This document shows positions 7,775-27,532 of a stretch of DNA of 40,214 bases, one piece after another. The notes beneath the pieces are model-generated. The model saw nothing but the letters and a program-made list of their open reading frames with translations, made no database searches and was not told where the DNA came from. The translations under genes and the position numbers were made by a program. Source of the DNA: Bifidobacteriaceae bacterium (lineage in GTDB: Bacteria; Actinomycetota; Actinomycetes; Actinomycetales; WQXJ01); assembly GCA_031255835.1 (NCBI GenBank), contig JAIRRT010000117.1, positions 1 through 40,214 on the forward strand. Reading direction: 5' to 3'. Numbering within the stretch: the stretch's first letter is position 1; each line of letters begins with the position of its first letter.

Positions 7775-10700
7775 CTAGTGCATCTGCCTGTCGCGGCGGC
7801 GCTTAGTGATCAGCAGCACCAACCCGGTCAGCAGCAGTCCCAGCGCCGTGCCTGCAGCAGGAATTGCTCCGCTGGTCAGGCCGGTCTTGGACAGTGTCGG
7901 CTGGAGGACCGGATCGCCCGGCGCAGTGACCGTCACTGTCTCGGTTGGACCCGGGACCGGGCTGGCCACATGCGTGGGCACCACAACGGTCGAAACCGGC
8001 GTTGGCGTGACCGAGATGGTCGGCGATGGCGACGGCTGTACAGCCTCGATCACATCGAAGTCGGCCGGACCGGCCTTGCCGGACAGCGGGCCAGTCGCAT
8101 CAGCCTTGTGGGCGCCAAGCTCAAACTCGGCCGGAACCTTGAACGTGAACACGGCGTTGCCAGCCGGACCGGCCACTGCCGTACCCAAGTCAAGCGGCGT
8201 CGAGTGGACGATGGCGTGGACCGTCTCACCGGGCTGGAAGTTGACAACCCGAACGGTCTGATCCTCACCATGGTGCAACTCGGGCTGGTCGACAGTGATG
8301 CGCGGTTGGCCCACGCGCCACAACACCTGATCCGACACGTTGCCGTCATCGTCGGTTTGGGTGACCACGATCATCGTGCCCTCTTCGAGCGGCACCGGCG
8401 GCTTGAGCTTCCACGTGCCGTCCGGGCTGACCGAGGTTTCACCGACGGGCTCGCCGTCCTCGGTGACAACGGTGACCGTGTTGCCGGGCAGACCCTGGCC
8501 GGGAACCTGAGTGCCATCATTCGGCTCGACAGTGGGCGGCACCGGCGGCTCGGTGAACCGCACCTGATCGGAAGAATCCGCCCGCGCCCCGCCAATCGAG
8601 AACCGGACTGTTGCCGTTCCGACCTGCGTTGACGTGAGTCGAGCCGAGTAGGTGCCGTCGCCATTGTCAGTCATCGTGTCGAAGATGCCGCTCAAGCTCG
8701 CCCATCGCATGCCGGGCAAGTTGCTGGACAACGCGATGGTCAGACCGGCACCGTACTCGCCAAGGGGCTGGCCGGCATCGTCCATCACGGTGACTATGGC
8801 TATGGTCGAATCCGGCATTGCGTCGTTGCCGTTTGCCAGCAGAACCCGCGGTGCCTGGATCTCGATCAACGAGGTGGCCAGTGATGCGGGCCTGTGGGTG
8901 AAGACCGCCTGGCTGTTGGCACCAGAGGCCGGGTTGATGGTCACGGAGGCCAACTCGACTGCAATCTGCTTGACGCCGGGCCGGGTCGAGACAATCGACG
9001 CCCTATACAGGCCGTCGGAAGGAACCCTCGCCGGGTTGACCGCGGCAAACGAACCGATCACGACTCCCTCCGCCGGATCAGCAGAGGCTGACAGCTGGCT
9101 TGCCATGCCGGGCACACCATTGCCGTAAGCATCGCGGACGGTGACAGTGACGGTGTGGGCTGCTACGCCATCGGCCACCTTGTCACCGCGGCTGACCTCG
9201 AAGCTGGACCTGCCCTCATCCCAGGGACCTGGGTCGAACCCGAACACCAGATGGGTTGTGGTCCTGCTGGTTCCGGCCGGGCGGGCCGGAACAGCGATCC
9301 ACCTGCTCGGCTGGGCGGGATCGGCAATCCTGGCCGAGAGCTCGACATCGCCGGCAACATCAGAGGTGAACCGCAACATCGCCTGGCCGTTTGCGTCGGT
9401 CTGGATGGGATCGCCACCAATCGAGGTGCCGTTCCGGCGGAAATCGACGCCCAGTCCGATCAGCGGATTGTGAGCCGGGGAGGCGTCGACAACCGTCACC
9501 AGAGCGGTGTGGATACCTTCCGGATCGGCTCCGCCAACAACTCGGCGCTCATTGTCCGTTCCGGTCAACACGCTCAGGTCCATATCGGCCTGCTGCAATG
9601 CGGTGAACTCGACGGACAGATCGCCAGACTCGGGCAACGGAACCGGGCCCGTTGAGCCAGGCAAGTCGATCAGCGCGGCATGGACCCAATAGGTTCCAGC
9701 AACCGTGGTGGTGAAGTCGGTCGAGGCGATGCCGCCTTCCACCGTCCGAGGCTCACGGGCTAGCTGGTCTGGACTGAACTCGACTGGGTTGCCGTCCGAG
9801 TCAACAACCCAGAAGCGCACAGTCTGACCCACCACCGCGTTCCCGCCCCTGTCCTTGACGGTCGCGGTAATGGTGACCATCTTGGTGACTTCCTGCTGGG
9901 TTGGGTTGACGCTCAAGGACGAGTTTGTCGGATCGGCCTGATCGGACCCGAACAAAGTGGTGTCCTTGCCGCTGGGCACCTGCAGGCCGAGTGGTAGGGC
10001 CGTTCCGTTGCTCTGCGCCAAGTCGACGCCAACCTTGAACGTCCCGGCCACCGTTGAGGTGATCGGCGCCAGGTACAGCCCAGGCTTCGCGCTGTCCTCA
10101 ACGAACACACCGAACACCGGCCCGTTCTTGTCAAGACGCATATGGAGCAGATCGTCGATGCCGGTGCCTTGCAAATCGGCGTCAGCCAGGCCGGGAACCC
10201 CGACGCCCGAAGCGTCAGCCAGGAAGACTGACAGGGTTTGGCTGTCGCGGCCATTCGCTTTGACAGAAGCATCATCGGTCACCGTGAACCAGGAGGTCCC
10301 CAGCGCGGGCGGGCCGGTGATGAACTCGACTTGCACCTCACCTGAGCCTCGCGGCACGGTTTGGGTTACACCGTCCAGTCCCAGGATGGTGGCGTGAACT
10401 GTGTAGGTGCCCGGCACGCGTGAGGTGAAGTACAGGTCCGCCTCACCCTTGTCATTCGTGGGGGCAACGCCTTGCCATGCCGGATCAGTGATGGCTGGCA
10501 CGGTGGAGAACATCACGGTGGCACCCTGAACCCAGTTGCCATCCTTGTCCATGGCGGTCACCCGCACGTGGTGTTCCTCGGCCATGACCTTCATTGGCAC
10601 GGTGGTGATGGCCTCAAGCGTGGACCTCTCAGCAGAAACTGGTCCGGCGTCGAAGCGAACCCGTGATCCGCTGGGGCCCGGGGTCAGAGCCACGGTGCCC

Positions 10701-13700
10701 TTGAAGGAGACGGCGACGTTGCGCGCGGCGGCCACCGTGGAGGTGATGCGAGCCACATACACACCTGGGTTTTCGATTGGATCCTCTTCAAAGTCGCCGA
10801 TGTCGAACGGCGGGGCTTCGGCATGCAGGAAGTCCTTTTGACCGGTCATTCCGTTGCCGGTGCCATCCAGGAGCGTGACTGTCACCTCGTGGAAGTCGTA
10901 TCCAGTCGAGTTGCCGTTGGCGATCCGGATCCCGGTGGAGACGGAGAATGTGGCGCCATCGTCCGCCAACTCACCTGGCACGAATCGAACTGAGGTGGGA
11001 GAGCCAGTAGCTGGCGGAATCACATCACCAACCCGCACGGTTATGGCGTAGGTGGCAGCGCTGCGTGACGTGATCTCCGCAACGTACCGTCCATCAACAC
11101 CATCCACGGCGGTGAACCTGCCAATGCTGGCCGGCCCGGCTTTCGGAGAATTGGCATCCAGCCGCACGGAGATCTGTTCTGCCGCGCCGTTGACCTTGGC
11201 GCCGTTTACATCGACCAAGTCGACAGTCAACTCGTGGGAGTCCTCGCCGTTGGCGATGCGATCACCCGAGGTGACCGAATAGCTCGAATCAGCCGGGGAG
11301 ACGTTCGAGTGGATGAACACCAGATCGAAGTACGGCGGGTTTTGCACCGAGATGCCATTCACGCGAGCTGTCAACCGGGCCGTTCCCAGCTTGGTCGATG
11401 TGATGGTGACCTTGGCGGCACCATCACCATTGACCGGGAGCAGGCCACTGTTGGACAAACTCGCCTCCGGCAGGCCACTCAAGGCGAACTGGACCGAAGT
11501 GTCGATGGTCACCGGGTTGTCGAAGCGATCACGCACTTTCACTGTCGCCTCGTGAGGATCGGCTGGATTGTTGACCAGCTTCTCAGTTGTGGTTGCCTCC
11601 AACGTTGTCTTGGTCCATGAGATGTCGGTGGCCCGGAACACCACAGTCCGTTCGCCTGACCAGCGCAATTGCTGACCGTCCCGCGTTGTGCCGAAGGCTG
11701 CAAAGACGTGGTAGGTCCCAGCTTTCTCGGTGGTGAATTCGATGCTGGCCAGACCCTCCTTGTCAGTTGTCAAGACCGTCTGCATGGAGTCCGGCACGGT
11801 GTCCGGCACGGTCCAAACTGTGACGTCCTGGTTTTCCACTGGGTTGCCGTCATGGTCGGTGACATGGACGGTGGCTGTGTGGCTCTCGTCTTTGACGCGA
11901 CGGCTGCCTGTCGTGACGCTCAACTCACTCTTTCCAGCATCGGGAGTTCCAGCCACAAACACGGCCCGCCGGTTCAGACTGGTCCTGACATCGGTGCCAT
12001 CGAACTTGACGCTCACCAAGTGCGAGCCTGCCTTGGCAGAGCGGATTGCGGCGCTGTACTGGTCGCCATCCCATTCCGGGTCCTCAATCGAGGAGTATTC
12101 GCCAGTGGCCGTTATGCGGCTGGCATCGCCCTCGCGGACGTTGCCAAAGGCGTCTGCCACGGTGATGAATACGGTCTGATAGTCGGAGTTGTTGGCACGG
12201 ATCCCTAGGGTCTGGCTGACCCAATAGTTGATGGCACTGGCCGGTCCGGCCACAAACGTGACCGTAGGCGTCTGAGTACTGCCGCTTGCGGGCCGCAGTT
12301 CAGTTCCGCCCACCTCGACTCGCACCGGATAGGTGCCAGCCTTCTGGGAAACGATGTCGGCAATGTATGTGGCCTGTTCAGCCGAATCCGGATCGATCCG
12401 CCAACGCACAACGGTGGCGTCTGGCCCTGCAAAGCCGGCCAATTCCTTGGCTGGATCATCCAACGGCACCGGAGTGCCGAGCTGATCGAGCGTCCTGACC
12501 CGGACGGTGTGGGTCTCCACACCAGCTATCCGGGTGCCATCGGACACGCTGTAGTAGGAGGCGCGATAGTCGAGCAGATCTGGCACGAACTCCAGCGCCA
12601 GGCTTGCCGGCACTCCTGGCCGGGACAGAATCGGCAGACCGGTGGTGTAGTCACCGATCTTCGCGGTCACACGCGCAAAGCCAGCCTCGGCATTCGAGAC
12701 GATGTGGACAACCACCTCGCCGTCCGCGTTCGTGGTGGCCTGGGCCACCGTGCCACCAGACGTGATCTGCCCAGCTGGGGAAACCAGCGAGATCCTGCCA
12801 ATATCGGCAACAGAGATGGTGACCATTTGGCCAGCGATGGCGTTGCCATATATGTCATTGACGGTGACAGTCGCGACGTGGAATGCCTGGTTGTTCGCCA
12901 CCTTGCGCTCATTCTCGGTGCCAGTCAACGTTGAAGCCAACTGGTCCGGCGCACCAGCAACGAACTCAATCTCGGTTGGCGATCCGGTCACCGCCTGGCC
13001 GTTCACCTTGGCTGACGCAAGGTAGGTCAAAGCCTTTTCAGACGAAACCATTAGCGTCGCCACGCCGCCGCCAGCCGAAATGGCTGTGGCCGGAGACAGC
13101 GCCGGAACAACATCCGGAACAGTCTCAAACGTCACGGTCTGGCCATTGACCGGATTGCGTCCAGCAGAGCAATCGCGCACGATGACGCGCAGCTCCCAAG
13201 CGCCTCGACCCGCCACAACCTTGGTGTCACCCAAGGCTGGAACTGGCGTCGCGGTCAGCTGAGAATTCTGGCCGCACGCATCACCTGGGACAAACACAGC
13301 AAGGTTGTTGCGTTGCCCGGACGAGAGCGTGACAGGCGCGCTTGCGCCATCGGTGGCTGTGGCTGTCATTGTGAACGTGCCGGCTACCTCTGACCGAATC
13401 GGTGCGGTGTACTGCCCGGCCGCACCTGGGGTGAAGGTACCGACGCTCAACAGCGGGGTGTTGGCGGTGTCGGATGCTGCCATGTTCAAACCGGTCACGC
13501 CGTTGCCCTTTGCGTCACGCACCACAGCGGTCAGCGTGTGGGCTGCACTGCCGTCGGCTTTGCGGTCCGGAGGAGACGTTGTCACCTCGAAGTAGGACGT
13601 GGTTTCGCTCGGGGAACCTGGCACAAACTGCATTGAACTGCGAGGCGGAGTGTTGCTCGGATCTGGCCGGATGGTTCCGCCACTGGAATGGACAGCTGTG

Positions 13701-16700
13701 ATATTGAACGTCGCAGCATATGTCGAGGTGGCGGACACCTCGTAGACGCCCTTATCCACTTCTGTGGGATTCAGCGGCATCGTCAATGCTGTGCCGTCTG
13801 GCCTGGCTGGAGATCCCGGTGCTGGGACGGCCGTCACCGTCAAGGATTCGGCTGCGCCGACAACGGGAGCCTCCTTCTCATCGAGTAGATAGATGGTGAT
13901 CGTGTGAGGATCATTGCCACTGGCCTCGCGGGCTTCTGGCGTCACCGTGTAGTACGACTTCTCTGGCGAATAGATCGAGGGGACCCACTCCCAGGTCAGT
14001 TTGGCAGGCGAGCCATCGGCTGAGGCGTTTGTGACCGCCTGGTTGCCGATCCTCGCGGTCACGATTGTGGTGCCAAGGGCGAAGTCGCCAACATAGCGAA
14101 CCTCAGCGAACCCGCCATTCACACTAGTTGGAGTGGCGCTATAGCCGTCCACGAGCTTGCCGATCGGGGCCTGACCGGTCGGGTTCTCCAGGTGGAAGGA
14201 CACAGGCACACCGTCAATTGCGTTGCCGTACTGGTCCATCACTTTGACCTTGGCCCAGTGCTCATCCACACGGTTGGACAGCACCTGACCGGATGACCCA
14301 GTCAAGATGCTTGCCGTGGGGGAGGGAGCATCGTGGGTGAACTCGACTTCAATCTCGCCGGACTTCTTCACAGGCGTGCCGGACACGGCTGTGCCGTCCG
14401 CCAGTTCTGCATAAACGGTGTAGGTACCAGCCACCTTGGTGCTCAAAGTGGCCGTGGCCTCGCCATTTGCCTTGGTTTGGACACGCAGGAACGGCAGTGT
14501 GCCACCATCAGGATTGATCGCATCGATAGGACTGGTCCTGACCAGCACAATCTGGTTGGACACCTTGTTGCCGCGCGCGTCAAAGACCTTGATGGTGGCC
14601 TTGATCTCGCCGCCGGCAACCTGGGTCAGCCGGTCCACGCTCAGCTCCGAATCACCGGGCACTGCTGGGCCCGCCACGAAGTGGGCGGTATCCCGGGCCG
14701 GGTCTGTCGGCTCGAGTGCTTTCCCAACTGCGGTGACGCTGATCGGGAACGCGCCAGCTACCGATGATCGAATCTGGCCCACATACACCCCGGGCGGGCT
14801 GTTCGGTTTGGCGATGAACTGCTGGGTGCCGGGGGTGTTCCCATCAAGGTCCACCAGATAGGCACCGGGTCTGGCTACCACGGCCTGGATGTCACCGGCC
14901 CTGCCAGCAATCCCCACGCCTGCCTCGGTGTACAGCCAGACGGTTACCTCTTGGAAGTGCTCTGGAGCCTCATCGGCTATTACGTCGGTCCACTGGGAGA
15001 CCTCGAACTTCGACTTGATCTCCGAGATCGCGCCGTAGACAAACTCGACGGTCAATCCGGAGTTCTTCACGGCAATCGGTGCGCCGTCCCCACCCACCAC
15101 GGTCGCGTGGACTGGGTACGTGCCCTCTTGATCGGCCGTGAAGCTGAAGCGGGCTATGCCGTTCGAATCGGATGTGGCTGTCCATCTCGTGCCCTCCCAA
15201 GGCCGGGCTCCGGCCACCGAGAACGTCACCGGGGAGCTGCGTAGCTCGTTGCCTTTGGCATCGCGAACAACCACTTCAGCGATATGGAACTCGCTGGTGA
15301 CAGCCCGCGGACCTTGGGTGATGATGGTCAGCTCTGACGTGCCGGCCGGAGGCCCAGCATGGAAGTTGGCGATGTCATTGGCTGGTCCGGGCTTGATTGT
15401 GCCGCTGGAGCTGCCAAACAGGTCGATGACAACCGGGAAGGACTTGGCCAGTGCCGAGCGCACGCCAGCGGTGTAGACACCTGAGTTGGGCTGGCCGGTG
15501 AAGCCAGAGACCGTGGCGGGAGACGCGCTGCCCTTTAGATCGCCGGCCCTGCCGGGCACCTCGTTGTCGTGGGCGTCACGCAAGGTGACAACCACGCTCA
15601 CCTCGGACTCGTCATCGGCCAGGACCGATTCGGTAGCGACTGCGTAGCTGGAGTGTTCAAGGTTGACTTGGCCGGCAACCCAGGTCAGCGTGTTGCCGGC
15701 TCTTGGTGGCACGGTGCCATTGACGTTGACAGTGACAGTCATGGTGTCGGCCACAGTTGAGGTTGCAAGGGCGGTGAACACACCAGCAACCTGGCTGGAA
15801 GGACTGAACTCGCCGATGGTGGCAGAGCCCTTCGGGCCAACAATTCTCACCGAAATCGACCTCGCCACGTTCGGATCCTCGATTGGTGTGCCGAAGGAAT
15901 CACGCAGGCGGACAAACACCTCGTGGGCGTTGGCCGGCGCAGTGCTTCCATTGGCCACCCTGTCGCCAGTCGAAAGCCAGAACTCCGACTCCTCCGGGTC
16001 AATCTCGGTTACGTCGAAGTGCAACGGGATCTGGGATGGCACAGGCTGAGCTGTCGAGCCGCGCACGGTTGCTGTCAACGAGGCGGTGCCGACCCTTTGC
16101 GAGCTGACGGCGATGGTGGCCGTCCCATCGTTCAGGGTGTCGACAGCGCCGTTCACTGGGGACATTTGAGCAGTTTCCAGCCCGCTGACTGAGAAGTTGA
16201 CGCTCTGACCGATGATCGGGTTGCCGAACTGGTCCTGCAGGGTTGCCTTGACCTGGTGCGGCGTTGAGTTCACATAGGCGGTCTCGGCAGTCAGCCGTTC
16301 AAGGGTGATCGAGGCCAGGTCACCGGCACTGAACTCCACTGGCGTTGGGCTGTACTTGACAGGCGGCTCGTCCGGAAGGGCAAGCGTTGCGTGGACGTTA
16401 TGCGTGTTCACCTTGGTCGAGGTGAACGTGAACTGGGCTTGGCCGGGGTTCACCAGTGAATCGACAGGACCGCTGGTCTGGGTCAGGAAGCCAACTCCAC
16501 CACCGATTGAGGGCACAGCAAACGGGTCGAGCCACAGTTTGACAACCTGGTTTGGAACCAGGTTGTCGTACTTGTCTCGCACTGTCACAGTGGCCGCAAC
16601 CGTGTCGCCAACTCTCGGATTCTGTGGGGTTACCGTCAAAGTCGACTTGCCCGGAACGGCCTGCCCAGCCACGAACGTAGCTTTGGAAGCATCCACAGCA

Positions 16701-19700
16701 CCAGGGATGGTGATCGGTTGGGGTTGATCCAGCACCACCTGCACGGCATGGCTGCCGGACTTAGTTGATGTGATGCAAGCCTGGTAGGTGCCCTCTGAGG
16801 TCTGGGCGAACGTATGGACCAAAGCCGGATCAGCTGAGCCGTCGAGCAGGGCTGGATCGACCGTGATCGGGTTGTCGTAGCTATCAGCGAGGGTCACGGT
16901 GGCCGTTTGGCACGCCTCGCCATCGGCCAGGACTCGTGGGGTCTTGGTTACTGAGAAGCCGGAGTGGTCCGGATGGACCGGCCCAGCAGCAAATGGCGCC
17001 TGATCCGAATCGAGAGGACCTTGCGATAGTGCCTTCGATACGTCTGAATCGGCGTAGGTCACCCGGACAGTTGCCATGCCGGCAACGGTCGATGTGACCC
17101 GTGTGAAGTATTTGGCGCCTGTTGGGTCATTGAGATCCTTGGTCCAACCAGTCAACGGAGCATCGAGCTTGTTCGCGATGGTGATCCGTCCACCTAGCAA
17201 CGCTAGGTCAACCTGGGCTGGCCGGCCGCCTTCATCGTTCAGGACAACGACAACGCGGTGTTCGCCCACGCCAACAACTGGAATCGGGTCTTGGTGGCGG
17301 GTCTCCACCTCGAAAGCGGAGCCCTTTGGATCGACGGTGCCAGGCACAAACCGCAGGTAGACAGTCTGCGGTTCGGAGGTTTCAGGATCGAGGAGTTTGA
17401 CGTCGCTCGTGCCATCAGACGGTGTGTAGTAGCCGTGGACCGGCGAGGCCAAGACAGGGGTCAGAGACCGGACATACACAGTGGCCGTGCCGTCGGGCCC
17501 GGTTGTGGCTGTCGCATCCTGGCCTGGGCCCTGACCTGCAACATAGACCGGATCGAACAGCTCGAACCGAACAGGCCAGTCTGGTACCGGGTTGAGATTG
17601 ATGTCCTTCAAGGTGATCTTCACCGCGTGGGTCGCATCGCCATCGGCCGTTCTTGCACCCTCACCTTCCAGCGACAAGACGGACAGCGTCGGGTGCGGCT
17701 CCCCTGGGGTGAAGACAATCTCGCGGGATCCATTTGCGGTGCCTCGGCCGTTTTGACCGGTGAAGGTGGCCTCCACCAGGAACGTGCCGGCCTTGGTGCT
17801 CGAGACGGAGAAGGCTGCTGTGCCGCCAGAGCCAGTGGTGAGTGCGCCGCTTGGTGTCACGGTGGCTGCGCCAGTGCCGCCCACCTGGTTGGCGGTCAGC
17901 TCCACGTCAGCTCCAGACACCTTGTTGCCGAGGCAGACTTGGCCGTTCCATGCGCCATCGGTCACGGTCACCATGGCCGCGAATGTGGAGCCTGCCGTTT
18001 GAGGCCCAGTCGGATCGACCACGATGGCGGCGCATGATGCCGCGCCATGAACAAAGTTGGCATATCGGTTGGCTTGACCGCCATCGGCGGCCTGGAGGGT
18101 CTGCTCGGCCTGGCCGACTGCCGGGGTGTAGTACGCACCGATGAGGTGGCTCCCGGCTATGGCCGAGCTGACCTCAGCCTCGAACTCGAAGCCGTCCGGA
18201 GGGTTGCTGGACGCGGAGAACTGACCAACCGTGGCATCCCCAGCCAGTGCCCGGGCCTGGACCTTGGCAACGACGGCGGGATCGGTGATGGTGTTTCCGT
18301 AGCCGTCCTCAAGGTGGAGGTAGACCAGCTGGCGGCCAGTCAGAACAGGCTGGTTGTCGAACCTCGAGACAGCAAAGACTGATCTGCCATCCGGAATGGA
18401 CGGGTCGCCGGGCACAAACTCCACCCAGTCACGGCCGTTGATGGGCTCCGGTGCAATCTGCTGGGGACCCACTGGGGCGTCGGCGCGAGACCACAAGATG
18501 GTCAGATCCTTGATGCCGGCTGCGGTCGAGTTGATGGTGGCGGTGTACTCCCCGCGCTGCTGCGGGTCAGGAACAAACCCTGAAACAACCGCGTCGCCCT
18601 CGCCGCTGCGTCCGATGGCGGCACCACCCAGGAAGTCCGCCTGGCCCATCATCACCTCGCCCTCGCAAGTTTCCAGGTGGACGCGCAGCTCAAACGGAGT
18701 GGTACCGACAACCTTGGGTCCGTTCGGGGTGACCGAGTAGTTGGACATCGCCGGGTCTGTGCACGGAATGACCAAATAGTCGAACCTAAGCTCCAGCCTC
18801 ACTGGATTGGTTGTGCCTTCCTCCCAGATCGCCTGACCGTTGGCGCTGGCGGTGACAATTGCGGTGTCGATGACGGGAGAGGTCATCTCGATGGTGAACG
18901 TGCCCTCCGCGCCGGTCACTGAGGTGGCGGCAGCTGAACCGCTGGCGCTTGGACGCAGTGGATCGGAGACCACGATGCCGCCTGGCTGGACTGTGAACGT
19001 CACAGCCACGCCTGGCACCGGGTTGTCGTTGATATCCAGAACAGTCACGGTGGCCTTGTGGACACCTGTTCCGCCAGGCGGCAGAACCTGGCCGGCGGTC
19101 GCAGAAGTCAGCGTGATGGTGGCCGGATCGGTTGGCGCGAACACGATGGTGTCCAAAGCTCCAACCTTGGTCAACGTGGCGTGACCAGGCAGATACCCGG
19201 ACACCGTGTAGGTGCCGGCCTTGATCGAAACGATCTCGGCCAGATAGGTGCCTGGAGTGGAAGTCTCGGTGATGGTGATCTGTGCGGTGGATGGATCGAC
19301 AGCCACAACAAGGTCATCTTCCACGCCGGTGATCGCCTTGCCGCCGGCATCGGCCAGCTCAACCCGGACCTGGTGTGGTGTTAGGCCGTCAGCTGGCAAA
19401 GGTGTCTTGGTGAGGATCTCGAACGTGGCTTTAGACACACCCTCCAGCCCGGACAGCTCAACCCTGATCGACTCATCGGCCGAGGACACTGCCACGCCCT
19501 TCGGATCGGTGGCATCAGCCCTGACTGCGACGGTGGCATGGCCAGCCACGATGTTGGCGCCAGTGACCACATACGTTGCACTGGCCGTGACCGACTGGCC
19601 TGGCAGCAACCGGCCCGGATGGGTCGGATCAGGCCACTGACCTGTGACAATGTTGGCGAGACGGCCGTCGATGCTAACCGGCGTCACACCGTTCAACGTG

Positions 19701-22558
19701 ACGTTGCCCTGGTTGGTGATCTCGAAGGAGTAGTGGATCGGATCGCCTTGACGCACCGGGTTGTGCCACTCGGAGGTATCGGTGTCATACGTCAAAGCAA
19801 GGGTTGGTGTTTCAACACCGCGCTCGGCGTTGAAGATGGTGCACTGACCGGCGGCCTGCCAGGCAGCGTCACAGGTTGGGGGCTCGACATCGGAGATGTC
19901 AGGCGTGGCCCAACCCACAGAACCGATGGTGCTGTCGCCTTCCTCGCCAATCTCCAAAGTCCACGTCACCGTGGCGCTTTGGCCGGCAGTGAGTGGATAT
20001 GTCCAGGTGAGCAGACCTGTTTGCTGGTCGACTGTGGCCTGGCCCAAGCTGGCTGCAATCTGTCCAGTCAACGTGCCGTTGTCCAGCGCATCAGACAAGT
20101 CGACGATGACGGAAGCCGGCGCACTTTGGGTGAAGTCACCTGTGCCGGTGTTTTCGGCGGTGAAACTGAAGGTCAGGCTGTTGCCTTCAACTGGAAGAGG
20201 CTGGCCCTGGATGTCGGAGGTCAACTCCAAACGGGGCAGCGCGTTGCTCGCTTTGGCGCAGGCCTCACCGCTGGTCGAATCGTTGCCCTGAACCTGGCTG
20301 GTGCAGGTGGGCGTGACGGGCGCCGCTGGATCCTGCGGCTGGAAGGCGGTGTTCGTCATGTTGGTGTCGCCGCCTGGGCCGACCTTGCCGGAGTAGACAA
20401 TGTCGATTGATTCACCCGAAGCAAGCGCGCCGGTCCACTGCAAGCCCTTGCCGCCCTTGCTCAGCTCGCCAACCCCAGCAGGTTCGGTGACAGCGGTGGA
20501 CAGGACGGGGACGTCATCGTCGATGGCGGTTTGATCGTCATGGACTACGGCGGGGGAGTTTTCGGTGAAGTCGCCTTGGCCGGTGTTGGTGGCTGTCACG
20601 CGGTAGGTGACGTCCTGGCCAATCCGCAGATCAGTGGCCGGAGCCATTGTCTTTTCCAAGGTCAACATGGGCATGTCGAATCCGGTGGCACGGCAGGCGA
20701 CATCGTTCTGGTTCCAGACCTCCTCCTCGTCAATCTCGCACACAGGGGTGGGAACCGGCACTGCCTTTTCCAGCCAGGCAACAGTGTTGACCTCGCCGTC
20801 CCTGGCCGATGGCGGTGCTAGCGGCTTGACCGTGGCGGAGAAATCGGTGCTGAAACTGTCACCTGGGGCTGGGGGCACGAATGTCCAGTCGATCACCTTT
20901 GTGACCGGGTCATAGCTGCAGTCCTCGCCAGCGAAGTTGGTGCAGGCATCGAAGCCGTAGTCGGTGTCATCGATGATCTCGGACAGATCGGCGTGCACGG
21001 TGACTGTCTCGCCTTCCAGGGCGCTGCCGTGACCGATGTTGGTGACTGTCAAGGCGAAATCGGCCTGGTCACCGGACCGGAAATCCTGCGTGCCAGTGTT
21101 GGTGAAGTCCAGCCGCAGTCCCGGCAGGCTCAGGTGTGTGGGGTGGTCCTCCACCTCTCCGCCGAACACGAATCCAGTCGGCATGACAGCGTCAGCCTGG
21201 CTGCTGGCAATGCGCAAACGGGCATAAGTGAAGTTGTTGCCCAGGGCCTCGACGGAATCGTCCGGCACGTTCCAGCCCAGAGAGATCGTGGCAGATTCGC
21301 CCGCGTTGGCTGGGCATGCCACAGCGCCGGGGGTGACAGGTACGCCGTCGGGGGATGGTGGTCCAGATAGTTCTGTGGCATCGAAGGTTCCGTTCGAGTT
21401 GAAGTCGATCCAGCCGGCTACGTAGCCCGGTGCGGCGCACTCAATGCCCGGGACTGTGACGTGGCTGCCGATGAAGCCGCCTACCATCGGCGGGAAATCG
21501 ACGTCTTCATCGTCCTCGCCGTTGTCATCGTCAGCATCGGCGTTGGTGGAGTAGATGTAGGCGGCCTCGCCGTCCGTTGTGGCGCCGAGCCGAGTGGCGG
21601 GATTGTCCATTTCTGCCATGTCAACCTCGCCGGGAGTGGCCAGCGTGGTCCCAACGCCCAGGAGCCCACCGGTCCAACCAGGCTGGTAGATGGCGCCAGC
21701 CTGGCCGTAGGAGGCAGGGGCATCGCCCATGTCCACCGAGGTGACCACGCCCAGCGCTACAGCCGAGACGCCGCCGCCCTTGATCTCCACGTTCGCGGCA
21801 GTTGCACCCTCCATGAACGCAACAACCGTTGGGCCACCGCCCTGTCCGCATTCCTCGTCGTTGGGCCGCAGTATCAGCTTGTTGCTGCTGTCCAGCACCG
21901 CTTCTGTTGCTACGTCCTGGCAGGCTGAGTACGTGTCGAGAATGCGCCAGTTGACGCCAGTGCCATCTGGCGTTGCCGCCACGTACTCATTGGTGCTCTT
22001 GGAGGAGGATTCGGCATCGGCGATGACAAGGCCACCCACCTGGGCCGGGAGACCGCCGAACGTGACTGAGCAGGAGAACTTGAAGGAGGTCGTTGCGCTG
22101 CGAACCGCGTTGGCGATTCCCGCGATCAGCTCGTTGTCCTCACCTTCGCCGCCGACGTTGTACAGGTTGTCCAGGCCGTCGTTTCTCCATGTGCCTGGCT
22201 TGTAGGCCTTGATCCTGGGGATCTGCCCGGGGCTGGAGGAGGTGATGGAGCAGGTGGTGACGAGGGGGACGCCGCCTACGGTGCGGGTGTTGGTCACCGT
22301 CATGGGTGCTGTGAGGGTGGCATCGTGTGCGCCCCATTCGAACCAGTCGATCACCCCGGGGAACCGGCCGGAGCCTCCCGAGGCGAACTGGGCATCAGCT
22401 GGAGGTATGGATACCGAGTTCAACCCGACATATGTCAGGACCATACCTACGGACAAACTGGCCGCAAGTCCCCAGCGGATGCGGTGGCGTGTGCGCTGGA
22501 CCAAGCCCAGCCACTTATCGGAAGCGTGCGAAGAGCGAACACGGGACATACCTAGCAT
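7775..22558 (-). CDS. Giant (~4,930 aa) cell-wall-anchored fibrillar adhesin: CshA-NR2-like head, GEVED, DUF11-like domains, ~32 invasin/Big_1-type Ig repeats, sorting signal
   Basis: Uninterrupted 14.8-kb ORF; basic-then-hydrophobic signal peptide ending ADA; FASGGSGRF...IDWFEWG; GWIDFNSNGTFD...YARLRI...GGEVED; repeated V.V.D..GN.V.G..V.F units; P/T-rich linker, LSKTG, TM helix and KRRRDR tail. Start may be GTG 22597 or ATG 22558 (AAGGA SD). Confidence 0.9.
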   Translation of the reverse strand: MLGMSRVRSSHASDKWLGLVQRTRHRIRWGLAASLSVGMVLTYVGLNSVSIPPADAQFASGGSGRFPGVIDWFEWGAHDATLTAPMTVTNTRTVGGVPLVTTCSITSSSPGQIPRIKAYKPGTWRNDGLDNLYNVGGEGEDNELIAGIANAVRSATTSFKFSCSVTFGGLPAQVGGLVIADAESSSKSTNEYVAATPDGTGVNWRILDTYSACQDVATEAVLDSSNKLILRPNDEECGQGGGPTVVAFMEGATAANVEIKGGGVSAVALGVVTSVDMGDAPASYGQAGAIYQPGWTGGLLGVGTTLATPGEVDMAEMDNPATRLGATTDGEAAYIYSTNADADDDNGEDDEDVDFPPMVGGFIGSHVTVPGIECAAPGYVAGWIDFNSNGTFDATELSGPPSPDGVPVTPGAVACPANAGESATISLGWNVPDDSVEALGNNFTYARLRIASSQADAVMPTGFVFGGEVEDHPTHLSLPGLRLDFTNTGTQDFRSGDQADFALTVTNIGHGSALEGETVTVHADLSEIIDDTDYGFDACTNFAGEDCSYDPVTKVIDWTFVPPAPGDSFSTDFSATVKPLAPPSARDGEVNTVAWLEKAVPVPTPVCEIDEEEVWNQNDVACRATGFDMPMLTLEKTMAPATDLRIGQDVTYRVTATNTGQGDFTENSPAVVHDDQTAIDDDVPVLSTAVTEPAGVGELSKGGKGLQWTGALASGESIDIVYSGKVGPGGDTNMTNTAFQPQDPAAPVTPTCTSQVQGNDSTSGEACAKASNALPRLELTSDIQGQPLPVEGNSLTFSFTAENTGTGDFTQSAPASVIVDLSDALDNGTLTGQIAASLGQATVDQQTGLLTWTYPLTAGQSATVTWTLEIGEEGDSTIGSVGWATPDISDVEPPTCDAAWQAAGQCTIFNAERGVETPTLALTYDTDTSEWHNPVRQGDPIHYSFEITNQGNVTLNGVTPVSIDGRLANIVTGQWPDPTHPGRLLPGQSVTASATYVVTGANIVAGHATVAVRADATDPKGVAVSSADESIRVELSGLEGVSKATFEILTKTPLPADGLTPHQVRVELADAGGKAITGVEDDLVVAVDPSTAQITITETSTPGTYLAEIVSIKAGTYTVSGYLPGHATLTKVGALDTIVFAPTDPATITLTSATAGQVLPPGGTGVHKATVTVLDINDNPVPGVAVTFTVQPGGIVVSDPLRPSASGSAAATSVTGAEGTFTIEMTSPVIDTAIVTASANGQAIWEEGTTNPVRLELRFDYLVIPCTDPAMSNYSVTPNGPKVVGTTPFELRVHLETCEGEVMMGQADFLGGAAIGRSGEGDAVVSGFVPDPQQRGEYTATINSTAAGIKDLTILWSRADAPVGPQQIAPEPINGRDWVEFVPGDPSIPDGRSVFAVSRFDNQPVLTGRQLVYLHLEDGYGNTITDPAVVAKVQARALAGDATVGQFSASSNPPDGFEFEAEVSSAIAGSHLIGAYYTPAVGQAEQTLQAADGGQANRYANFVHGAASCAAIVVDPTGPQTAGSTFAAMVTVTDGAWNGQVCLGNKVSGADVELTANQVGGTGAATVTPSGALTTGSGGTAAFSVSSTKAGTFLVEATFTGQNGRGTANGSREIVFTPGEPHPTLSVLSLEGEGARTADGDATHAVKITLKDINLNPVPDWPVRFELFDPVYVAGQGPGQDATATTGPDGTATVYVRSLTPVLASPVHGYYTPSDGTSDVKLLDPETSEPQTVYLRFVPGTVDPKGSAFEVETRHQDPIPVVGVGEHRVVVVLNDEGGRPAQVDLALLGGRITIANKLDAPLTGWTKDLNDPTGAKYFTRVTSTVAGMATVRVTYADSDVSKALSQGPLDSDQAPFAAGPVHPDHSGFSVTKTPRVLADGEACQTATVTLADSYDNPITVDPALLDGSADPALVHTFAQTSEGTYQACITSTKSGSHAVQVVLDQPQPITIPGAVDASKATFVAGQAVPGKSTLTVTPQNPRVGDTVAATVTVRDKYDNLVPNQVVKLWLDPFAVPSIGGGVGFLTQTSGPVDSLVNPGQAQFTFTSTKVNTHNVHATLALPDEPPVKYSPTPVEFSAGDLASITLERLTAETAYVNSTPHQVKATLQDQFGNPIIGQSVNFSVSGLETAQMSPVNGAVDTLNDGTATIAVSSQRVGTASLTATVRGSTAQPVPSQIPLHFDVTEIDPEESEFWLSTGDRVANGSTAPANAHEVFVRLRDSFGTPIEDPNVARSISVRIVGPKGSATIGEFSPSSQVAGVFTALATSTVADTMTVTVNVNGTVPPRAGNTLTWVAGQVNLEHSSYAVATESVLADDESEVSVVVTLRDAHDNEVPGRAGDLKGSASPATVSGFTGQPNSGVYTAGVRSALAKSFPVVIDLFGSSSGTIKPGPANDIANFHAGPPAGTSELTIITQGPRAVTSEFHIAEVVVRDAKGNELRSSPVTFSVAGARPWEGTRWTATSDSNGIARFSFTADQEGTYPVHATVVGGDGAPIAVKNSGLTVEFVYGAISEIKSKFEVSQWTDVIADEAPEHFQEVTVWLYTEAGVGIAGRAGDIQAVVARPGAYLVDLDGNTPGTQQFIAKPNSPPGVYVGQIRSSVAGAFPISVTAVGKALEPTDPARDTAHFVAGPAVPGDSELSVDRLTQVAGGEIKATIKVFDARGNKVSNQIVLVRTSPIDAINPDGGTLPFLRVQTKANGEATATLSTKVAGTYTVYAELADGTAVSGTPVKKSGEIEVEFTHDAPSPTASILTGSSGQVLSNRVDEHWAKVKVMDQYGNAIDGVPVSFHLENPTGQAPIGKLVDGYSATPTSVNGGFAEVRYVGDFALGTTIVTARIGNQAVTNASADGSPAKLTWEWVPSIYSPEKSYYTVTPEAREASGNDPHTITIYLLDEKEAPVVGAAESLTVTAVPAPGSPARPDGTALTMPLNPTEVDKGVYEVSATSTYAATFNITAVHSSGGTIRPDPSNTPPRSSMQFVPGSPSETTSYFEVTTSPPDRKADGSAAHTLTAVVRDAKGNGVTGLNMAASDTANTPLLSVGTFTPGAAGQYTAPIRSEVAGTFTMTATATDGASAPVTLSSGQRNNLAVFVPGDACGQNSQLTATPVPALGDTKVVAGRGAWELRVIVRDCSAGRNPVNGQTVTFETVPDVVPALSPATAISAGGGVATLMVSSEKALTYLASAKVNGQAVTGSPTEIEFVAGAPDQLASTLTGTENERKVANNQAFHVATVTVNDIYGNAIAGQMVTISVADIGRISLVSPAGQITSGGTVAQATTNADGEVVVHIVSNAEAGFARVTAKIGDYTTGLPILSRPGVPASLALEFVPDLLDYRASYYSVSDGTRIAGVETHTVRVRTLDQLGTPVPLDDPAKELAGFAGPDATVVRWRIDPDSAEQATYIADIVSQKAGTYPVRVEVGGTELRPASGSTQTPTVTFVAGPASAINYWVSQTLGIRANNSDYQTVFITVADAFGNVREGDASRITATGEYSSIEDPEWDGDQYSAAIRSAKAGSHLVSVKFDGTDVRTSLNRRAVFVAGTPDAGKSELSVTTGSRRVKDESHTATVHVTDHDGNPVENQDVTVWTVPDTVPDSMQTVLTTDKEGLASIEFTTEKAGTYHVFAAFGTTRDGQQLRWSGERTVVFRATDISWTKTTLEATTTEKLVNNPADPHEATVKVRDRFDNPVTIDTSVQFALSGLPEASLSNSGLLPVNGDGAAKVTITSTKLGTARLTARVNGISVQNPPYFDLVFIHSNVSPADSSYSVTSGDRIANGEDSHELTVDLVDVNGAKVNGAAEQISVRLDANSPKAGPASIGRFTAVDGVDGRYVAEITSRSAATYAITVRVGDVIPPATGSPTSVRFVPGELADDGATFSVSTGIRIANGNSTGYDFHEVTVTLLDGTGNGMTGQKDFLHAEAPPFDIGDFEEDPIENPGVYVARITSTVAAARNVAVSFKGTVALTPGPSGSRVRFDAGPVSAERSTLEAITTVPMKVMAEEHHVRVTAMDKDGNWVQGATVMFSTVPAITDPAWQGVAPTNDKGEADLYFTSRVPGTYTVHATILGLDGVTQTVPRGSGEVQVEFITGPPALGTSWFTVTDDASVKANGRDSQTLSVFLADASGVGVPGLADADLQGTGIDDLLHMRLDKNGPVFGVFVEDSAKPGLYLAPITSTVAGTFKVGVDLAQSNGTALPLGLQVPSGKDTTLFGSDQADPTNSSLSVNPTQQEVTKMVTITATVKDRGGNAVVGQTVRFWVVDSDGNPVEFSPDQLAREPRTVEGGIASTDFTTTVAGTYWVHAALIDLPGSTGPVPLPESGDLSVEFTALQQADMDLSVLTGTDNERRVVGGADPEGIHTALVTVVDASPAHNPLIGLGVDFRRNGTSIGGDPIQTDANGQAMLRFTSDVAGDVELSARIADPAQPSRWIAVPARPAGTSRTTTHLVFGFDPGPWDEGRSSFEVSRGDKVADGVAAHTVTVTVRDAYGNGVPGMASQLSASADPAEGVVIGSFAAVNPARVPSDGLYRASIVSTRPGVKQIAVELASVTINPASGANSQAVFTHRPASLATSLIEIQAPRVLLANGNDAMPDSTIAIVTVMDDAGQPLGEYGAGLTIALSSNLPGMRWASLSGIFDTMTDNGDGTYSARLTSTQVGTATVRFSIGGARADSSDQVRFTEPPVPPTVEPNDGTQVPGQGLPGNTVTVVTEDGEPVGETSVSPDGTWKLKPPVPLEEGTMIVVTQTDDDGNVSDQVLWRVGQPRITVDQPELHHGEDQTVRVVNFQPGETVHAIVHSTPLDLGTAVAGPAGNAVFTFKVPAEFELGAHKADATGPLSGKAGPADFDVIEAVQPSPSPTISVTPTPVSTVVVPTHVASPVPGPTETVTVTAPGDPVLQPTLSKTGLTSGAIPAAGTALGLLLTGLVLLITKRRRDRQMH

Positions 22559-22661
22559 CGGATTGATCCTTCGGGTAGGAATCTTCGGAAGCGTCACCCG
22601 TGTAACAGACTGGTCTGATAGAGCGACCGTCTAGTTTTACGACATCCATATGTGTGCCGGC

Positions 22662-25878: not shown

Positions 25879-26106
25879 GTGGATGAACCTTGCCGGGATG
25901 AGATCTGCCTGACATGCCGCGATGACGCCCGCCCAGGGCAGGTTCTGACCCCGCCTGGCGATGCTTGGCAGTTGGCACAGGTCAGGACGGACACAGGGGT
26001 GGAAGAGGTGGATGTCTCCCTTGTTGGCGAGGTTGTTCCAGGTGACAGGGTCTTGGTCCACGCTGGCACTGCCATCGGACGGCTGGAACAGGGGGGCGAG
26101 GTATGA
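25879..26106 (+). CDS. HypC/HybG/HupF-family chaperone paralog
   Basis: EEVDVSLVGEVVPGDRVLVHAGTAI matches the HypC OB-fold; CLTC..D replaces the N-terminal MC; AAGGAG SD 8 nt before GTG 25879; ATGA-coupled to hypE. Confidence 0.8.
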   Translation: MDEPCRDEICLTCRDDARPGQVLTPPGDAWQLAQVRTDTGVEEVDVSLVGEVVPGDRVLVHAGTAIGRLEQGGEV

Positions 26107-27224
26107 ACCAGCCGGCGGGCGGGCAGGGGGGTGGCGAGGCGGCGGCGCTTGCCCGGATTGATGCGGTCCGCGCGCGCAGGCCACGGTTGAACGATGCCGT
26201 GGTGACCCTGGCTCATGGCGCTGGCGGCAAGGCTTCAGCTGCGCTGGTGGACGCAGTTTTCATTGAGGCGTTTGGGCAGCCGTGTCCGGATGAACTGACT
26301 GATGCGGCGCTGCTGGATGTCGGATCTGGCGGACAGATTGCGCTGACCACCGACTCCTACGTGGTCAACCCGCGGCGGTTTCCCGGCGGATCGATAGGCC
26401 ACCTGGCTGTCAACGGGACGGTCAACGATCTGGCCGTCAGTGGTGCCCGGCCGGCGTGGCTCTCGGCAGCATTCGTGATCGAAGAGGGCATGGAGGTGGC
26501 TGAACTCAAGCAGATCGCGGCGGACATGCGTCAGGCCGCCAGCCAGGCTGGGGTGGCCATTGTCACCGGGGACACCAAGGTTGTGCCGAAGGGCGCTGCG
26601 GACGGCTGCTTCATCACCACGGCCGGAGTTGGGATTGTGCCGCCAGGCCGCCGCCTTGGGGCCAAGCAGGTCATTTGCGGTGATGCCATGGTGGTTTCCG
26701 GTCCGCTGGGCAGCCACGGCATGGCTGTGATGATGGCCAGGGGGAATCTGGCGTTGGAGGCGGACATCCGCTCTGACTGTGCGCCGGTAAACCACCAGGT
26801 GGAGGCCCTGTTGGCGGCCGTACCGGACGTCAGGTGGATGCGCGATGCGACCAGAGGCGGCCTGGCAACCGTGGCAAACGAGCTTGCGCGGGCGAGCGGG
26901 CTGGGAGTCATGCTGGACGATGCCGCACTGCCGGTCATCCCGGCCGTGCGCGGGGCCTGCGACATGTTGGGGATTGATCCGCTGTATGTGGCCAACGAGG
27001 GCGTGTTTGTTGCCGTGGTCCCGGCCCAGGACGCCCAAACTGCCGTGGAGGCAATTGCCAGCGTCCCAGCCCCACCCAATCACCCCGCCGATGCCGCACT
27101 CTCCCCGGCCGTCATCGGCCACCTGACCAGCCAGGCGCCCGGGCTTGTGGGCGTGCAGAACGCCTTTGGGGGCACACGGCTGGTTGACATGCTGGTGGGC
27201 GATCCGCTGCCCAGGATCTGCTGA
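26103..27224 (+). CDS. hypE: Carbamoyl dehydratase HypE
   Basis: TLAHGAGGK, TTDSYVV, GTVNDLA, GDTKVV, MRDATRGG, ANEG, C-terminal LPRIC. Confidence 0.97.
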   Translation: MNQPAGGQGGGEAAALARIDAVRARRPRLNDAVVTLAHGAGGKASAALVDAVFIEAFGQPCPDELTDAALLDVGSGGQIALTTDSYVVNPRRFPGGSIGHLAVNGTVNDLAVSGARPAWLSAAFVIEEGMEVAELKQIAADMRQAASQAGVAIVTGDTKVVPKGAADGCFITTAGVGIVPPGRRLGAKQVICGDAMVVSGPLGSHGMAVMMARGNLALEADIRSDCAPVNHQVEALLAAVPDVRWMRDATRGGLATVANELARASGLGVMLDDAALPVIPAVRGACDMLGIDPLYVANEGVFVAVVPAQDAQTAVEAIASVPAPPNHPADAALSPAVIGHLTSQAPGLVGVQNAFGGTRLVDMLVGDPLPRIC

Positions 27225-27245
27225 CAGGGAAAGGACCAGGCGACC

Positions 27246-27518
27246 ATGTGTTTGGGAATACCAGGTGAGGTGATCGGCATTGTCGATCCGCAGGAGCATT
27301 TGGCGCGGGTTGCAGTCAGCGGGGTCCACCGGACCATCTCGGCTCGCCTGCTGGCCGATGATCCGGTGCAAGTGGGTGACTGGGTGCTGGTGCATGTGGG
27401 CTTTGCGATGAGCAAGATCGACGCCCGGGAAGCTGAGCTGACGCTCGATCAGATCCGCAAGCTGGGGCAGCCGTACGTTGAAGAGATGGACGCCTTCAGC
27501 CAAACCGAGATCGTGTAG
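27246..27518 (+). CDS. hypC: Hydrogenase assembly chaperone HypC
   Basis: MCLGIPG N-terminus and VGDWVLVHVGFAM. Confidence 0.97.
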   Translation: MCLGIPGEVIGIVDPQEHLARVAVSGVHRTISARLLADDPVQVGDWVLVHVGFAMSKIDAREAELTLDQIRKLGQPYVEEMDAFSQTEIV

Positions 27519-27532
27519 GGGGCGGGTTCGTT

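Follow-up and report, generated by a model that had tools for sequence, protein, structure and literature searches.

Two diverged copies of an approximately 14-domain block in the Ig-type stalk of a giant actinobacterial adhesin, with domain order retained among its relatives

Introduction

The stalks of bacterial adhesins are usually treated as arrays of near-identical repeats that grow and shrink by recombination. This study concerns the stalk of P0001, a giant adhesin encoded in a 40,214-nt stretch of DNA from a Bifidobacteriaceae bacterium (assembly GCA_031255835.1, contig JAIRRT010000117.1, positions 1 to 40,214), referred to here as the window. Its open reading frame (ORF) occupies 7775..22597 on the reverse strand, and all adhesin features given below lie on that strand. 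We found that the stalk consists of 32 immunoglobulin-like (Ig) units of two interleaved types, that a block of about 14 of these units appears twice in diverged form, and that the order of the units has been kept in relatives carrying different heads. The kind of protein is itself known; what is new is how the stalk is organised and how it evolved.

The nearest described adhesins are those of the CshA family of Streptococcus gordonii, which share with P0001 N-terminal CshA_NR2 and GEVED domains, a tandem beta-sandwich stalk and a Gram-positive sorting signal (PMC10952558, PMC8286594). CshA_NR2/GEVED heads are shuffled onto many stalk types (PMC10952558). CshA proper differs in having a stalk of CshA_repeat domains where that of P0001 is Big_1/Invasin_D3, and Big_1 is not mentioned in the main text of PMC10952558. 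The Big_1/Invasin_D3 family, its fold and a short-linker Ig rod are shared with the invasin, intimin, FdeC and InvD rods of Proteobacteria, where conservation is higher close to the cell, as in P0001 (for intimin, PMC4943183). Unlike these inverse autotransporters, P0001 has no beta-barrel translocator, appears to be anchored by sortase and has its adhesive head at the N-terminus, and its 32 units compare with four bacterial Ig-like domains in intimin (PMC4943183).

Periscope proteins are likewise anchored rods of tandem folded domains that project an N-terminal functional domain, but their stalks are made of near-identical DNA repeats and change length by homologous recombination (PMC9704523), whereas the repeats of P0001 are ~30% identical with no DNA repeat, its core is constant across nine relatives and different lengths are supplied by paralogs. 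Among actinobacterial proteins, the giant adhesin of Mobiluncus mulieris (Actinomycetaceae; 7651 aa, 51 Ig-like domains) is also a single LPxTG-type chain with two kinds of Ig-like domain, and its homologs differ by multi-domain blocks (21 domains) (PMC10619420). Its domains are ester-/isopeptide-cross-linked and CnaB/Cpe0147-like, and are arranged in runs of a single kind and not in an interleaved AABB pattern; no super-repeat is described in the text of PMC10619420.

Domain repeats are described as commonly growing by more than one domain at a time, a mode detected by score autocorrelation, with the seven-domain repeat of nebulin as an example and bacterial Ig-like repeats among the prokaryote-specific expansions (PMC1553488). 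The titin A-band (7 and 11 domains) and nebulin (7 modules) resemble P0001 in having two types in fixed order, position-wise likeness and recursive multi-domain duplication (PMC10665226, PMC1553488), and the positional likeness of titin super-repeats has been linked to a partner with a 43-nm period (PMC10665226). P0001 differs from both in having two copies with partial AABB modules at the ends, in that its types are subtypes of one Ig family, and in being prokaryotic and extracellular. A first-pass annotation of the window had called the stalk titin-like, and this describes the evolutionary pattern, but as an analogy only, since there are two copies rather than an array of many blocks. It had also considered the pattern undescribed for an actinobacterial adhesin. 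Consistent with this, our full-text literature searches, supplements aside, returned no paper on a bacterial Ig-type stalk that has a conserved super-repeat of several domains, although the general principle of multi-domain growth is already published (PMC1553488).

Stalk Units and Their Order

The stretch at 9235-18760, first annotated as a 14-domain super-repeat present twice, is contained in one ORF and equals residues 1280-4455 of the encoded adhesin. A hidden Markov model (HMM) iterated on P0001 alone detected 32 Ig units, each 99-123 aa long, the first core beginning at residue 1073 and the last at 4596; the total is that of the annotated layout of 2+14+14+2. The units were typed by unweighted pair group method with arithmetic mean (UPGMA) and by spectral clustering on all-vs-all Smith-Waterman (SW) scores, with the earlier labels not used. 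Both returned ABAABBAABBAABABBAABBAABBAABABBAA, identical to the order proposed: AB, twice AABBAABBAABABB, and AA. All 32 units had a higher mean score with their own type than with the other, and on a maximum-likelihood (ML) tree of the 32 units the A/B label cost 1 change (support 85/85), a value as low being reached in 0 of 500 shuffles. By HMM units and clustering, units 1-2 (A, B; 18746..19423, residues 1059-1284) stand ahead of the duplicated blocks and units 31-32 (A, A; 8510..9208, residues 4464-4696) behind them. Between them, windowed BLAST, clustering and profiles place copy I, units 3-16 (13958..18745, residues 1285-2880), and copy II, units 17-30 (9209..13957, residues 2881-4463).

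The two types had been likened to Invasin_D3 (A) and Big_1 (B). This is accurate for type B, where Big_1 outscored Invasin_D3 in 14 of 15 units, but not clean for type A, whose 17 units gave Invasin_D3 ahead in 8, Big_1 ahead in 5 and no match in 4. Over the whole P0001 stalk Pfam gave 550 bits to Big_1 in 21 stretches and 422 bits to Invasin_D3 in 17 stretches. Pfam was dropped as an A/B classifier, as both models match most units and neither matches four A units. The strict motifs proposed for each type never occurred in the opposite type (0 occurrences), but each was found in just 2-12 units.

Sequence anchors recur between the copies at the annotated spacing. GTASLTA (16070-16090) and GTARLTA (11366-11386) are 4704 nt apart, GTYPVHAT (to 15124) and GTYTVHAT (to 10411) 4713 nt, and SGEIEVEFT and SGDLSVEFT 4734 nt; this last pair lies at 14336-14362 and 9602-9628, as its annotated coordinates were wrong by 15 nt. 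Units 11 and 25 contain GDRVANG and GDRIANG, respectively. The cysteine (Cys) pair reported for the third unit of each block was found as C1522/C1555 (~unit 5) and C3108/C3143 (~unit 19).

The stalk has 8 cysteines in total (~13167-18761), in four pairs spaced 32-45 residues: C1279/C1311 (unit 3), C1522/C1555 (unit 5), C1896/C1941 (unit 8) and C3108/C3143 (unit 19). Three of the pairs have one Cys just ahead of the first strand and the other in the D..GN loop. Those of units 3 and 5 are also found in the relative P0063, while the unit 19 pair is present in the relatives P0062 and P0066 and absent from P0063. It is possible that these pairs form disulfides within extracellular Ig domains.

The 14-Unit Period

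To examine the off-diagonal signal, 450-aa windows of P0001 were BLASTed against the whole protein. The 11 best non-self high-scoring segment pairs (HSPs) all fell at offsets of 1561-1587 aa, in agreement with the proposed period near 1,570 aa. Their identity was 31-34.6% over 375-474 columns and the top score 168 bits, compared with 114 bits for the highest-scoring HSP elsewhere (offset 909). Self-BLAST of the whole protein returned the self match alone, and an ungapped whole-diagonal identity scan had no peak near 1570. The latter was rejected as a test because the register drifts by as much as ~25 aa over the block through insertions and deletions.

At the level of single units, those 14 apart were more alike than other pairs of the same type (mean SW score 87, n=17, vs 63, n=224; Mann-Whitney p = 5.6e-4). 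Scores were preferred to semi-global unit identities, which gave artefacts across types (units 22-30, 56% over a short stretch). With unit profiles built from six collinear proteins and compared all-vs-all by hhalign, lag-14 pairs averaged 101 against 71 for other same-type pairs (p = 1.5e-5). Eight of the ten reciprocal-best profile pairs are at lag 14 (5-19, 7-21, 8-22, 10-24, 11-25, 12-26, 13-27 and 14-28), the remaining two being 15-23 and 16-20. A FastTree tree of 183 units joined as sisters 5-19 (0.94), 14-28 (0.93), 13-27 (0.905), 10-24 (0.90) and 11-25 (0.886). Autocorrelation of unit scores also peaked at lag 14 in the relatives P0062, P0063, P0064 and P0065, and in P0066 at lag 4 and then 14. 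These comparisons lead us to regard the block duplication as secure for units 5-15 (14312..18031) against units 19-29 (9563..13249), the core best supported by reciprocal-best profile pairs and tree sisters.

A lag-14 signal could also arise with no block duplication at all, from the grammar of the subtypes or from convergence under shared structural constraints. At no lag other than 14 do nearly all pairs (here 17 of 18) share a type, and this inflates the raw averages per lag. Nevertheless, lag-14 pairs still score higher than same-subtype pairs (101 vs 83, p = 0.005) and dominate the reciprocal-best pairs, and collinear alignments of 420-470 columns occur at this offset with scores well above those found elsewhere. 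Oddities recur as well: units 5 and 19 both have a Cys pair, and each copy contains an extra A2-B1 pair (subtypes are described below). We consider an origin of the signal other than duplication highly improbable.

The extent of the duplicated segment is less clear, and several observations weigh against a simple copying of all 14 units. The claim that units 14 apart are mutually closest applies to 9 of 14 copy-I units by top profile match and not to the rest; with single-sequence scores the lag-14 partner was the top match in 5 of 14, plus one tie. For units 9 and 15 the partner ranks second by profile, but unit 3 is closest to unit 21, with unit 17 fourth, and the closest partners are units 8 and 22 for unit 4, unit 20 for unit 16, and units 25 and 26 for units 17 and 18. 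FastTree support was 0 for 16-30 and 0.15 for 12-26, and 11 of 32 orthogroups were non-monophyletic in that tree. The single-protein ML tree had 0 starred branches with 15 of 29 inner forks below 80, and was used solely for the A/B split and four sister pairs. Equivalent positions are therefore most alike for units 5-15 against 19-29, with weak likeness at the block edges, and the duplicated segment may have been shorter than 14 units or its ends may have been overwritten by later events.

The first of these possibilities can be put as a refinement of the duplication account, in which the segment copied was a core of ~11-12 units (5-15/16 and 19-29/30) and the AA block starts were derived separately, units 3-4 from 7-8 or 21-22 and units 17-18 from 11-12 or 25-26. 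The profile scores are in its favour (3-21 = 94 vs 3-17 = 71; 4-8 = 119 and 4-22 = 111 vs 4-18 = 81; 17-25 = 135; 18-26 = 121; 16-20 = 126 vs 16-30 = 69), as is the tree, which puts unit 3 sister to 21 (0.82) and intermixes units 4, 8 and 22. However, the best pair of unit 3 within P0001 alone is 3-17 (SW 103), collinear HSPs at offsets of 1586-1587 aa extend back to residues 1507-1602 (units 4-5), and the exact spacing of 14 units is kept, which separate events would not guarantee. Trees are also noisy for short domains at ~30% identity. On balance we find such a shorter core somewhat unlikely, and continue with a block of about 14 units.

Subtypes and Nested Duplications

Within the two types we could distinguish four subtypes that follow each other in the constant order A1-A2-B1-B2. 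B1 consists of units 5, 9, 13, 15, 19, 23, 27 and 29, and B2 of units 2, 6, 10, 16, 20, 24 and 30, with own-subtype profile scores of 83 (B1, p = 3e-7) and 80 (B2, p = 1.5e-5) against 56 with the sibling subtype in both cases. The split of A is less sharp, with A1 (1, 3, 7, 11, 17, 21, 25) scoring 82 vs 70 (p = 0.008) and A2 (4, 8, 12, 14, 18, 22, 26, 28, 31) scoring 87 vs 70 (p = 0.001). The 183-unit tree contains a clade of exactly these A2 units (0.82), a B2 clade of units 2, 6, 16, 20 and 30 (0.89) and a grouping of the seven A1 units. The 14-mer can be read as a run of three tetramers, in the third of which an additional A2-B1 pair occupies positions 12-13. As this pair is present in both copies, it must predate the block duplication.

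Further evidence comes from L002, a record from a Micrococcales metagenome-assembled genome. Here unit 31 and three further units occur in tandem twice (12941-14296 and 14297-15655) as an AABB tetramer. Identity between the copies is 61% in protein and 66% in DNA, and each copy is 43.5% identical to the single module of P0063. This duplication is lineage-specific, lies at the wall-proximal end of the stalk and is much younger than the 14-unit duplication, and shows that the tetramer is a real unit of duplication. Together with the subtypes in fixed order, it supports in outline the proposal that the stalk grew hierarchically, from tetramer to 14-mer to duplicated 14-mer.

The stalk would then have been built in three steps, as far as the order of events can be read from sequence relationships: an A1-A2-B1-B2 module was multiplied, one module acquired the extra A2-B1 pair to give AABBAABBAABABB, and this block of ~14 units (~1,570 aa) was duplicated once in tandem. 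We judge it likely that nested segmental duplications of whole domains produced the stalk, that the product serves as a rod-like spacer and that the array was afterwards frozen, taking these three parts as one explanation.

Relatives and Retention of Order

Relatives were sought in several ways. A word-indexed search with the stalk returned P0062, P0063, P0064, P0065 and P0066, which cover 94-100% of the 3179-aa query at 34-53% identity; in the full-length alignment relatives are 35-53% identical to P0001. An exhaustive phmmer search with units 14-19, the junction of copies I and II (691 aa), against 1.84 billion representative proteins gave 267 proteins at E <= 0.001, of which 7 were collinear over the full 691 aa (693-970 bits), the next scoring 388 bits. 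The family bearing the block is rare. A search for related loci with the P0001 sequence alone found 0 relatives among 110 pattern matches, and with the six-protein alignment it found 2 loci.

The units of these proteins were mapped onto P0001. By SW best hit, one-to-one collinear units numbered 29 of 29 in P0062, 29 of 30 in P0063 and in P0064, 28 of 30 in P0065 and 20 of 29 in P0066. Orthogroup HMMs applied to proteins outside their training placed 30 of 30 units in P0090, 23 of 23 in P0091 and 31 of 31 in L001; in P0092 29 units were detected, of which 26 were placed, and 115 aa form a gap at the expected unit 7. It must be said against this part of the evidence that the orthogroup profiles were trained on six proteins including two paralog types, so that mapping those six is partly circular; the independent mappings are the SW best hits, the proteins first found by the junction phmmer search, and L001. 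In all, nine other proteins hold the block collinear, one of them (P0065) a paralog from the same genome, and part of the apparent conservation of the block is therefore between paralogs of one genome. The proteins are distinct from each other, with identities of 78.7% for L001-P0062, 56% for P0063-P0065 and 34.6% for P0092-P0001 (3735 columns).

Units are 36-52% identical to their positional counterparts in other proteins and 22-43% to their lag-14 partner. Being nearer to the former, they indicate that the duplication predates the family and that the repeats have not been homogenised since, and the strong divergence of the copies, about 30-43% identical in protein, together with the nine collinear proteins bears out the earlier proposal of an old duplication with domain order retained. 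As domain shuffling would lead one to expect, one stalk block stands below different heads: L001 has the same CshA_NR2/GEVED head as P0001, DUF7507 is the sole recognisable domain in the head of L002, and the precomputed Pfam lists of P0063-P0066 do not include PF18651. From these alignments, the block appears to have been inherited unit by unit in paralogs and orthologs bearing different heads.

Two metagenomic fragments have other arrangements, with units in the order 10-15, 17-19, 8-10 in P0097 and 29, 30, 24-30 in P0101. These hint at further multi-unit rearrangements, including a 7-unit one, but the fragments are short and could be assembly artefacts.

Length Variation and Paralogs

The first-pass annotation had suggested checking whether homologs vary in length by 4 or 14 domains. 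A step of four is seen in the AABB tetramer repeat of L002, but among the 22 proteins mapped none differed by a 14-mer. Where lengths differ, the difference is either a deletion or lies beyond the block. P0063, P0065 and P0090 are longer by 12-13 units at the N-terminus and have three more (A B B in the P0063 type) separating unit 31 from unit 32; P0066 and L002 have seven at the latter position, and in P0001 and P0091 unit 31 directly precedes 32. The ends of the stalk thus vary by 3, 4 and 13 units among relatives, while the core is constant in nine.

The genome of P0001 (2.21 Mb in 206 contigs) encodes at least two paralogs with the stalk block, P0065 on contig C103 (6804 aa) and P0093 on C148 (3367 aa), giving stalks of 21 (P0093), 32 (P0001) and 47 (P0065) units. 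The head of P0093 is 40% identical to that of P0065, which differs from that of P0001. P0093 retains block units 2, 3, 4, 9, 12, 15, 16, 17, 18 and 32, and lacks 21 of the 30 block units in runs of 4, 2, 2 and 13 consecutive units. We ruled out that it is a form predating the duplication because its units are copy-specific (unit 17 scores 140 with og15 vs 74 with og29, and unit 18 scores 137 with og16), and these scores make it a deletion derivative. Since this shortened protein exists in the same genome, a fixed stalk length is not obligatory. The genome also encodes other giant Big_1 proteins on contigs C42 (P0129), C192 (P0104) and C94 (P0133), and surface adhesins occupy a large share of this small genome.

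Conservation of the Array

No DNA-level repeat was found in the stalk, with 0 arrays from Tandem Repeats Finder and a longest direct repeat of 45 nt at <=73% identity, leaving unequal homologous recombination without a substrate. The array would have evolved unhomogenised, with every unit an orthologous lineage of its own. Lack of a recombination substrate, combined with purifying selection against partly deleted, unfoldable domains, would be the simplest account of why the order was retained, and such an account does not require a titin-like ruler function.

Low identity between neighbours is expected in tandem Ig arrays that fold co-translationally. Neighbouring units of P0001 are on average ~29% identical, with a maximum of 40%, by what is a rough measure. 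This agrees with the 30-40% identity range cited for tandem domains that avoid misfolding (PMC9704523).

Three observations speak against a wholly passive stasis. P0093 demonstrates that in-register multi-unit deletions occur without DNA homology, and the retention of all 30 units in nine proteins hints that selection acts on length or on single units; with deletions possible and nine proteins intact, passive retention does not explain everything. In addition, the cell-proximal copy II (9209-13957) is more conserved than copy I (13958-18745), at 48.7% vs 42.7% and in 13 of 14 positions (p = 1.2e-4, five proteins), so that constraint depends on position. This parallels intimin, in which domains near the membrane are more conserved (PMC4943183).

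Stalk Structure and Function

An AlphaFold2 model of units 21-25, made from a 12-row alignment of segments from the window, L001 and L002, had a mean predicted local distance difference test (pLDDT) score of 92.2 and a predicted template modelling (pTM) score of 0.60. It consists of five beta-sandwiches. Successive units are joined by only ~5 residues, counted from last strand to first strand, and a short helical turn follows the second strand in A units only. The best PDB matches by Foldseek were invasin 1cwv (E = 4e-15), FdeC 4e9l (TMt 0.61) and InvD 5ldy. On this model the stalk would be a rod-like spacer, made of invasin-like Ig domains joined by short linkers, that keeps the head far out from the wall. 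Assuming ~3.6 nm per domain, as scaled from the invasin rod, the head would be held on the order of 100 nm or more from the wall.

A more demanding proposal, close to the mechanical or ruler role suggested by the first-pass annotation, is that the super-repeat is functional in the manner of titin, with positions that have their own jobs and a stalk that is no passive spacer. Such positions might dock a periodic partner, unfold mechanically in a graded order or set an exact reach. Several results would fit: every unit is conserved as a separate lineage in nine other proteins with different heads, the 30 block units are kept although P0093 demonstrates that they could be deleted in register, and conservation is higher in the proximal copy than in the distal. 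Coexisting paralogs of 21, 32 and 47 units in a 2.2-Mb genome would fit a set of reaches, and equivalent positions in titin are likewise more alike, in connection with the 43-nm period of its partner (PMC10665226). However, two copies do not make a real periodic lattice, no partner is known or visible and the neighbouring genes are housekeeping. Common descent alone predicts likeness at lag 14, and the lack of DNA repeats explains stasis. P0093 works, or at least persists as an open frame, minus 21 of the 30 block units, and relatives vary in length at both ends of the block. With this in mind, we consider a functional super-repeat distinctly unlikely. Its fullest form, a positionally differentiated device in which 30 units each have a job of their own (docking at fixed heights, graded unfolding) and the paralogs are fixed rulers of different reach, is equally doubtful, but if true the stalk would be a hard-wired counterpart of the recombining periscope proteins. 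The spacer formed by nested duplication and then frozen is the reading we retain.

Domain Architecture and Gene Context

Ahead of the stalk, P0001 has a CshA_NR2-type adhesive head at 21743..22354 (residues 82-285; PF18651, 170.9 bits vs a cut-off of 24), a match that spans profile positions 2-196 of 196. It is followed by a GEVED domain at 21143..21424 (residues 392-485; PF20009, 40.5 bits vs 24.4) and by beta-sandwich domains leading from head to stalk at 19481..20665 (residues 645-1039), assigned by Pfam to DUF7927/DUF11 (residues 645-767; PF25549, 69.4 bits) and DUF7507 (residues 931-1039; PF24346, 81.3 bits). Behind the stalk lies a Big_6-type Ig domain at 8324..8524 (residues 4692-4758; PF17936, 46 bits vs 27.6). 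A C-terminal sorting signal was read from the translation at 7778..7894 (residues 4902-4940), with LSKTG followed by a hydrophobic stretch and KRRRDR. The motif is LAKTG in the relatives; LAxTG is among the Gram-positive motifs accepted in PMC8286594, and LSKTG is a variant absent from the list given there. CshA_repeat was not among the 15 Pfam families matched in P0001 at E <= 0.01, invasin_beta barrel (PF11924) was not in its Pfam result, and the NCBIfam model intimin_all gave 15 bits vs a cut-off of 1400. With an adhesive head domain, tandem stalk units and a cell-surface anchor, P0001 fits the definition of a fibrillar adhesin in PMC8286594, and its domain content marks it as a fibrillar adhesin, predicted to be anchored by sortase, in which a Big_1-type stalk bears a CshA-type head. 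One sortase match (PF04203, 101 bits) was found in its own genome, on contig C19, away from the adhesin.

The ORF encodes 4940 aa from the first GTG, with the stop codon at 7775-7777, and the database version of the adhesin (P0002) has 4889 aa. The true start is probably a little downstream of the first GTG, and an early Met codon seems likelier than either extreme. P0002 leaves out about the first 51 codons of the ORF (22444-22597) and begins within the hydrophobic part of the presumed signal peptide, and the closest relative, P0062, begins at about codon 34 of P0001.

Genes neighbouring the adhesin are housekeeping in nature (ferrochelatase, Nramp, ilvD, disA, a radA-like gene and a UvrD/PD-(D/E)XK helicase-nuclease). 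A few kb from the adhesin, at 26103-28666, an AIR-synthase-related gene adjoins hypD (hydrogenase maturation, 518 bits); no hydrogenase structural gene was seen in the window.

Conclusions

This adhesin family would represent the opposite regime to that of the recombining stalk, an old array that has not been homogenised and in which each Ig domain is a conserved lineage. Its domain order would still document three nested rounds of multi-domain duplication, as an evolutionary fossil and not as proof of a ruler. The array has stayed whole beneath adhesive heads of different kinds and, within one small genome, in several paralogs, and so offers a clean case among prokaryotes for testing how arrays of tandem domains first grow and later freeze. 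It also provides a natural set of at least 30 diverged, foldable Big_1 domains with known neighbours, which may be of use for the study of misfolding avoidance and of inter-domain interfaces. Finally, it raises the testable question of how important the length of the stalk, or single positions within it, may be for adhesion.

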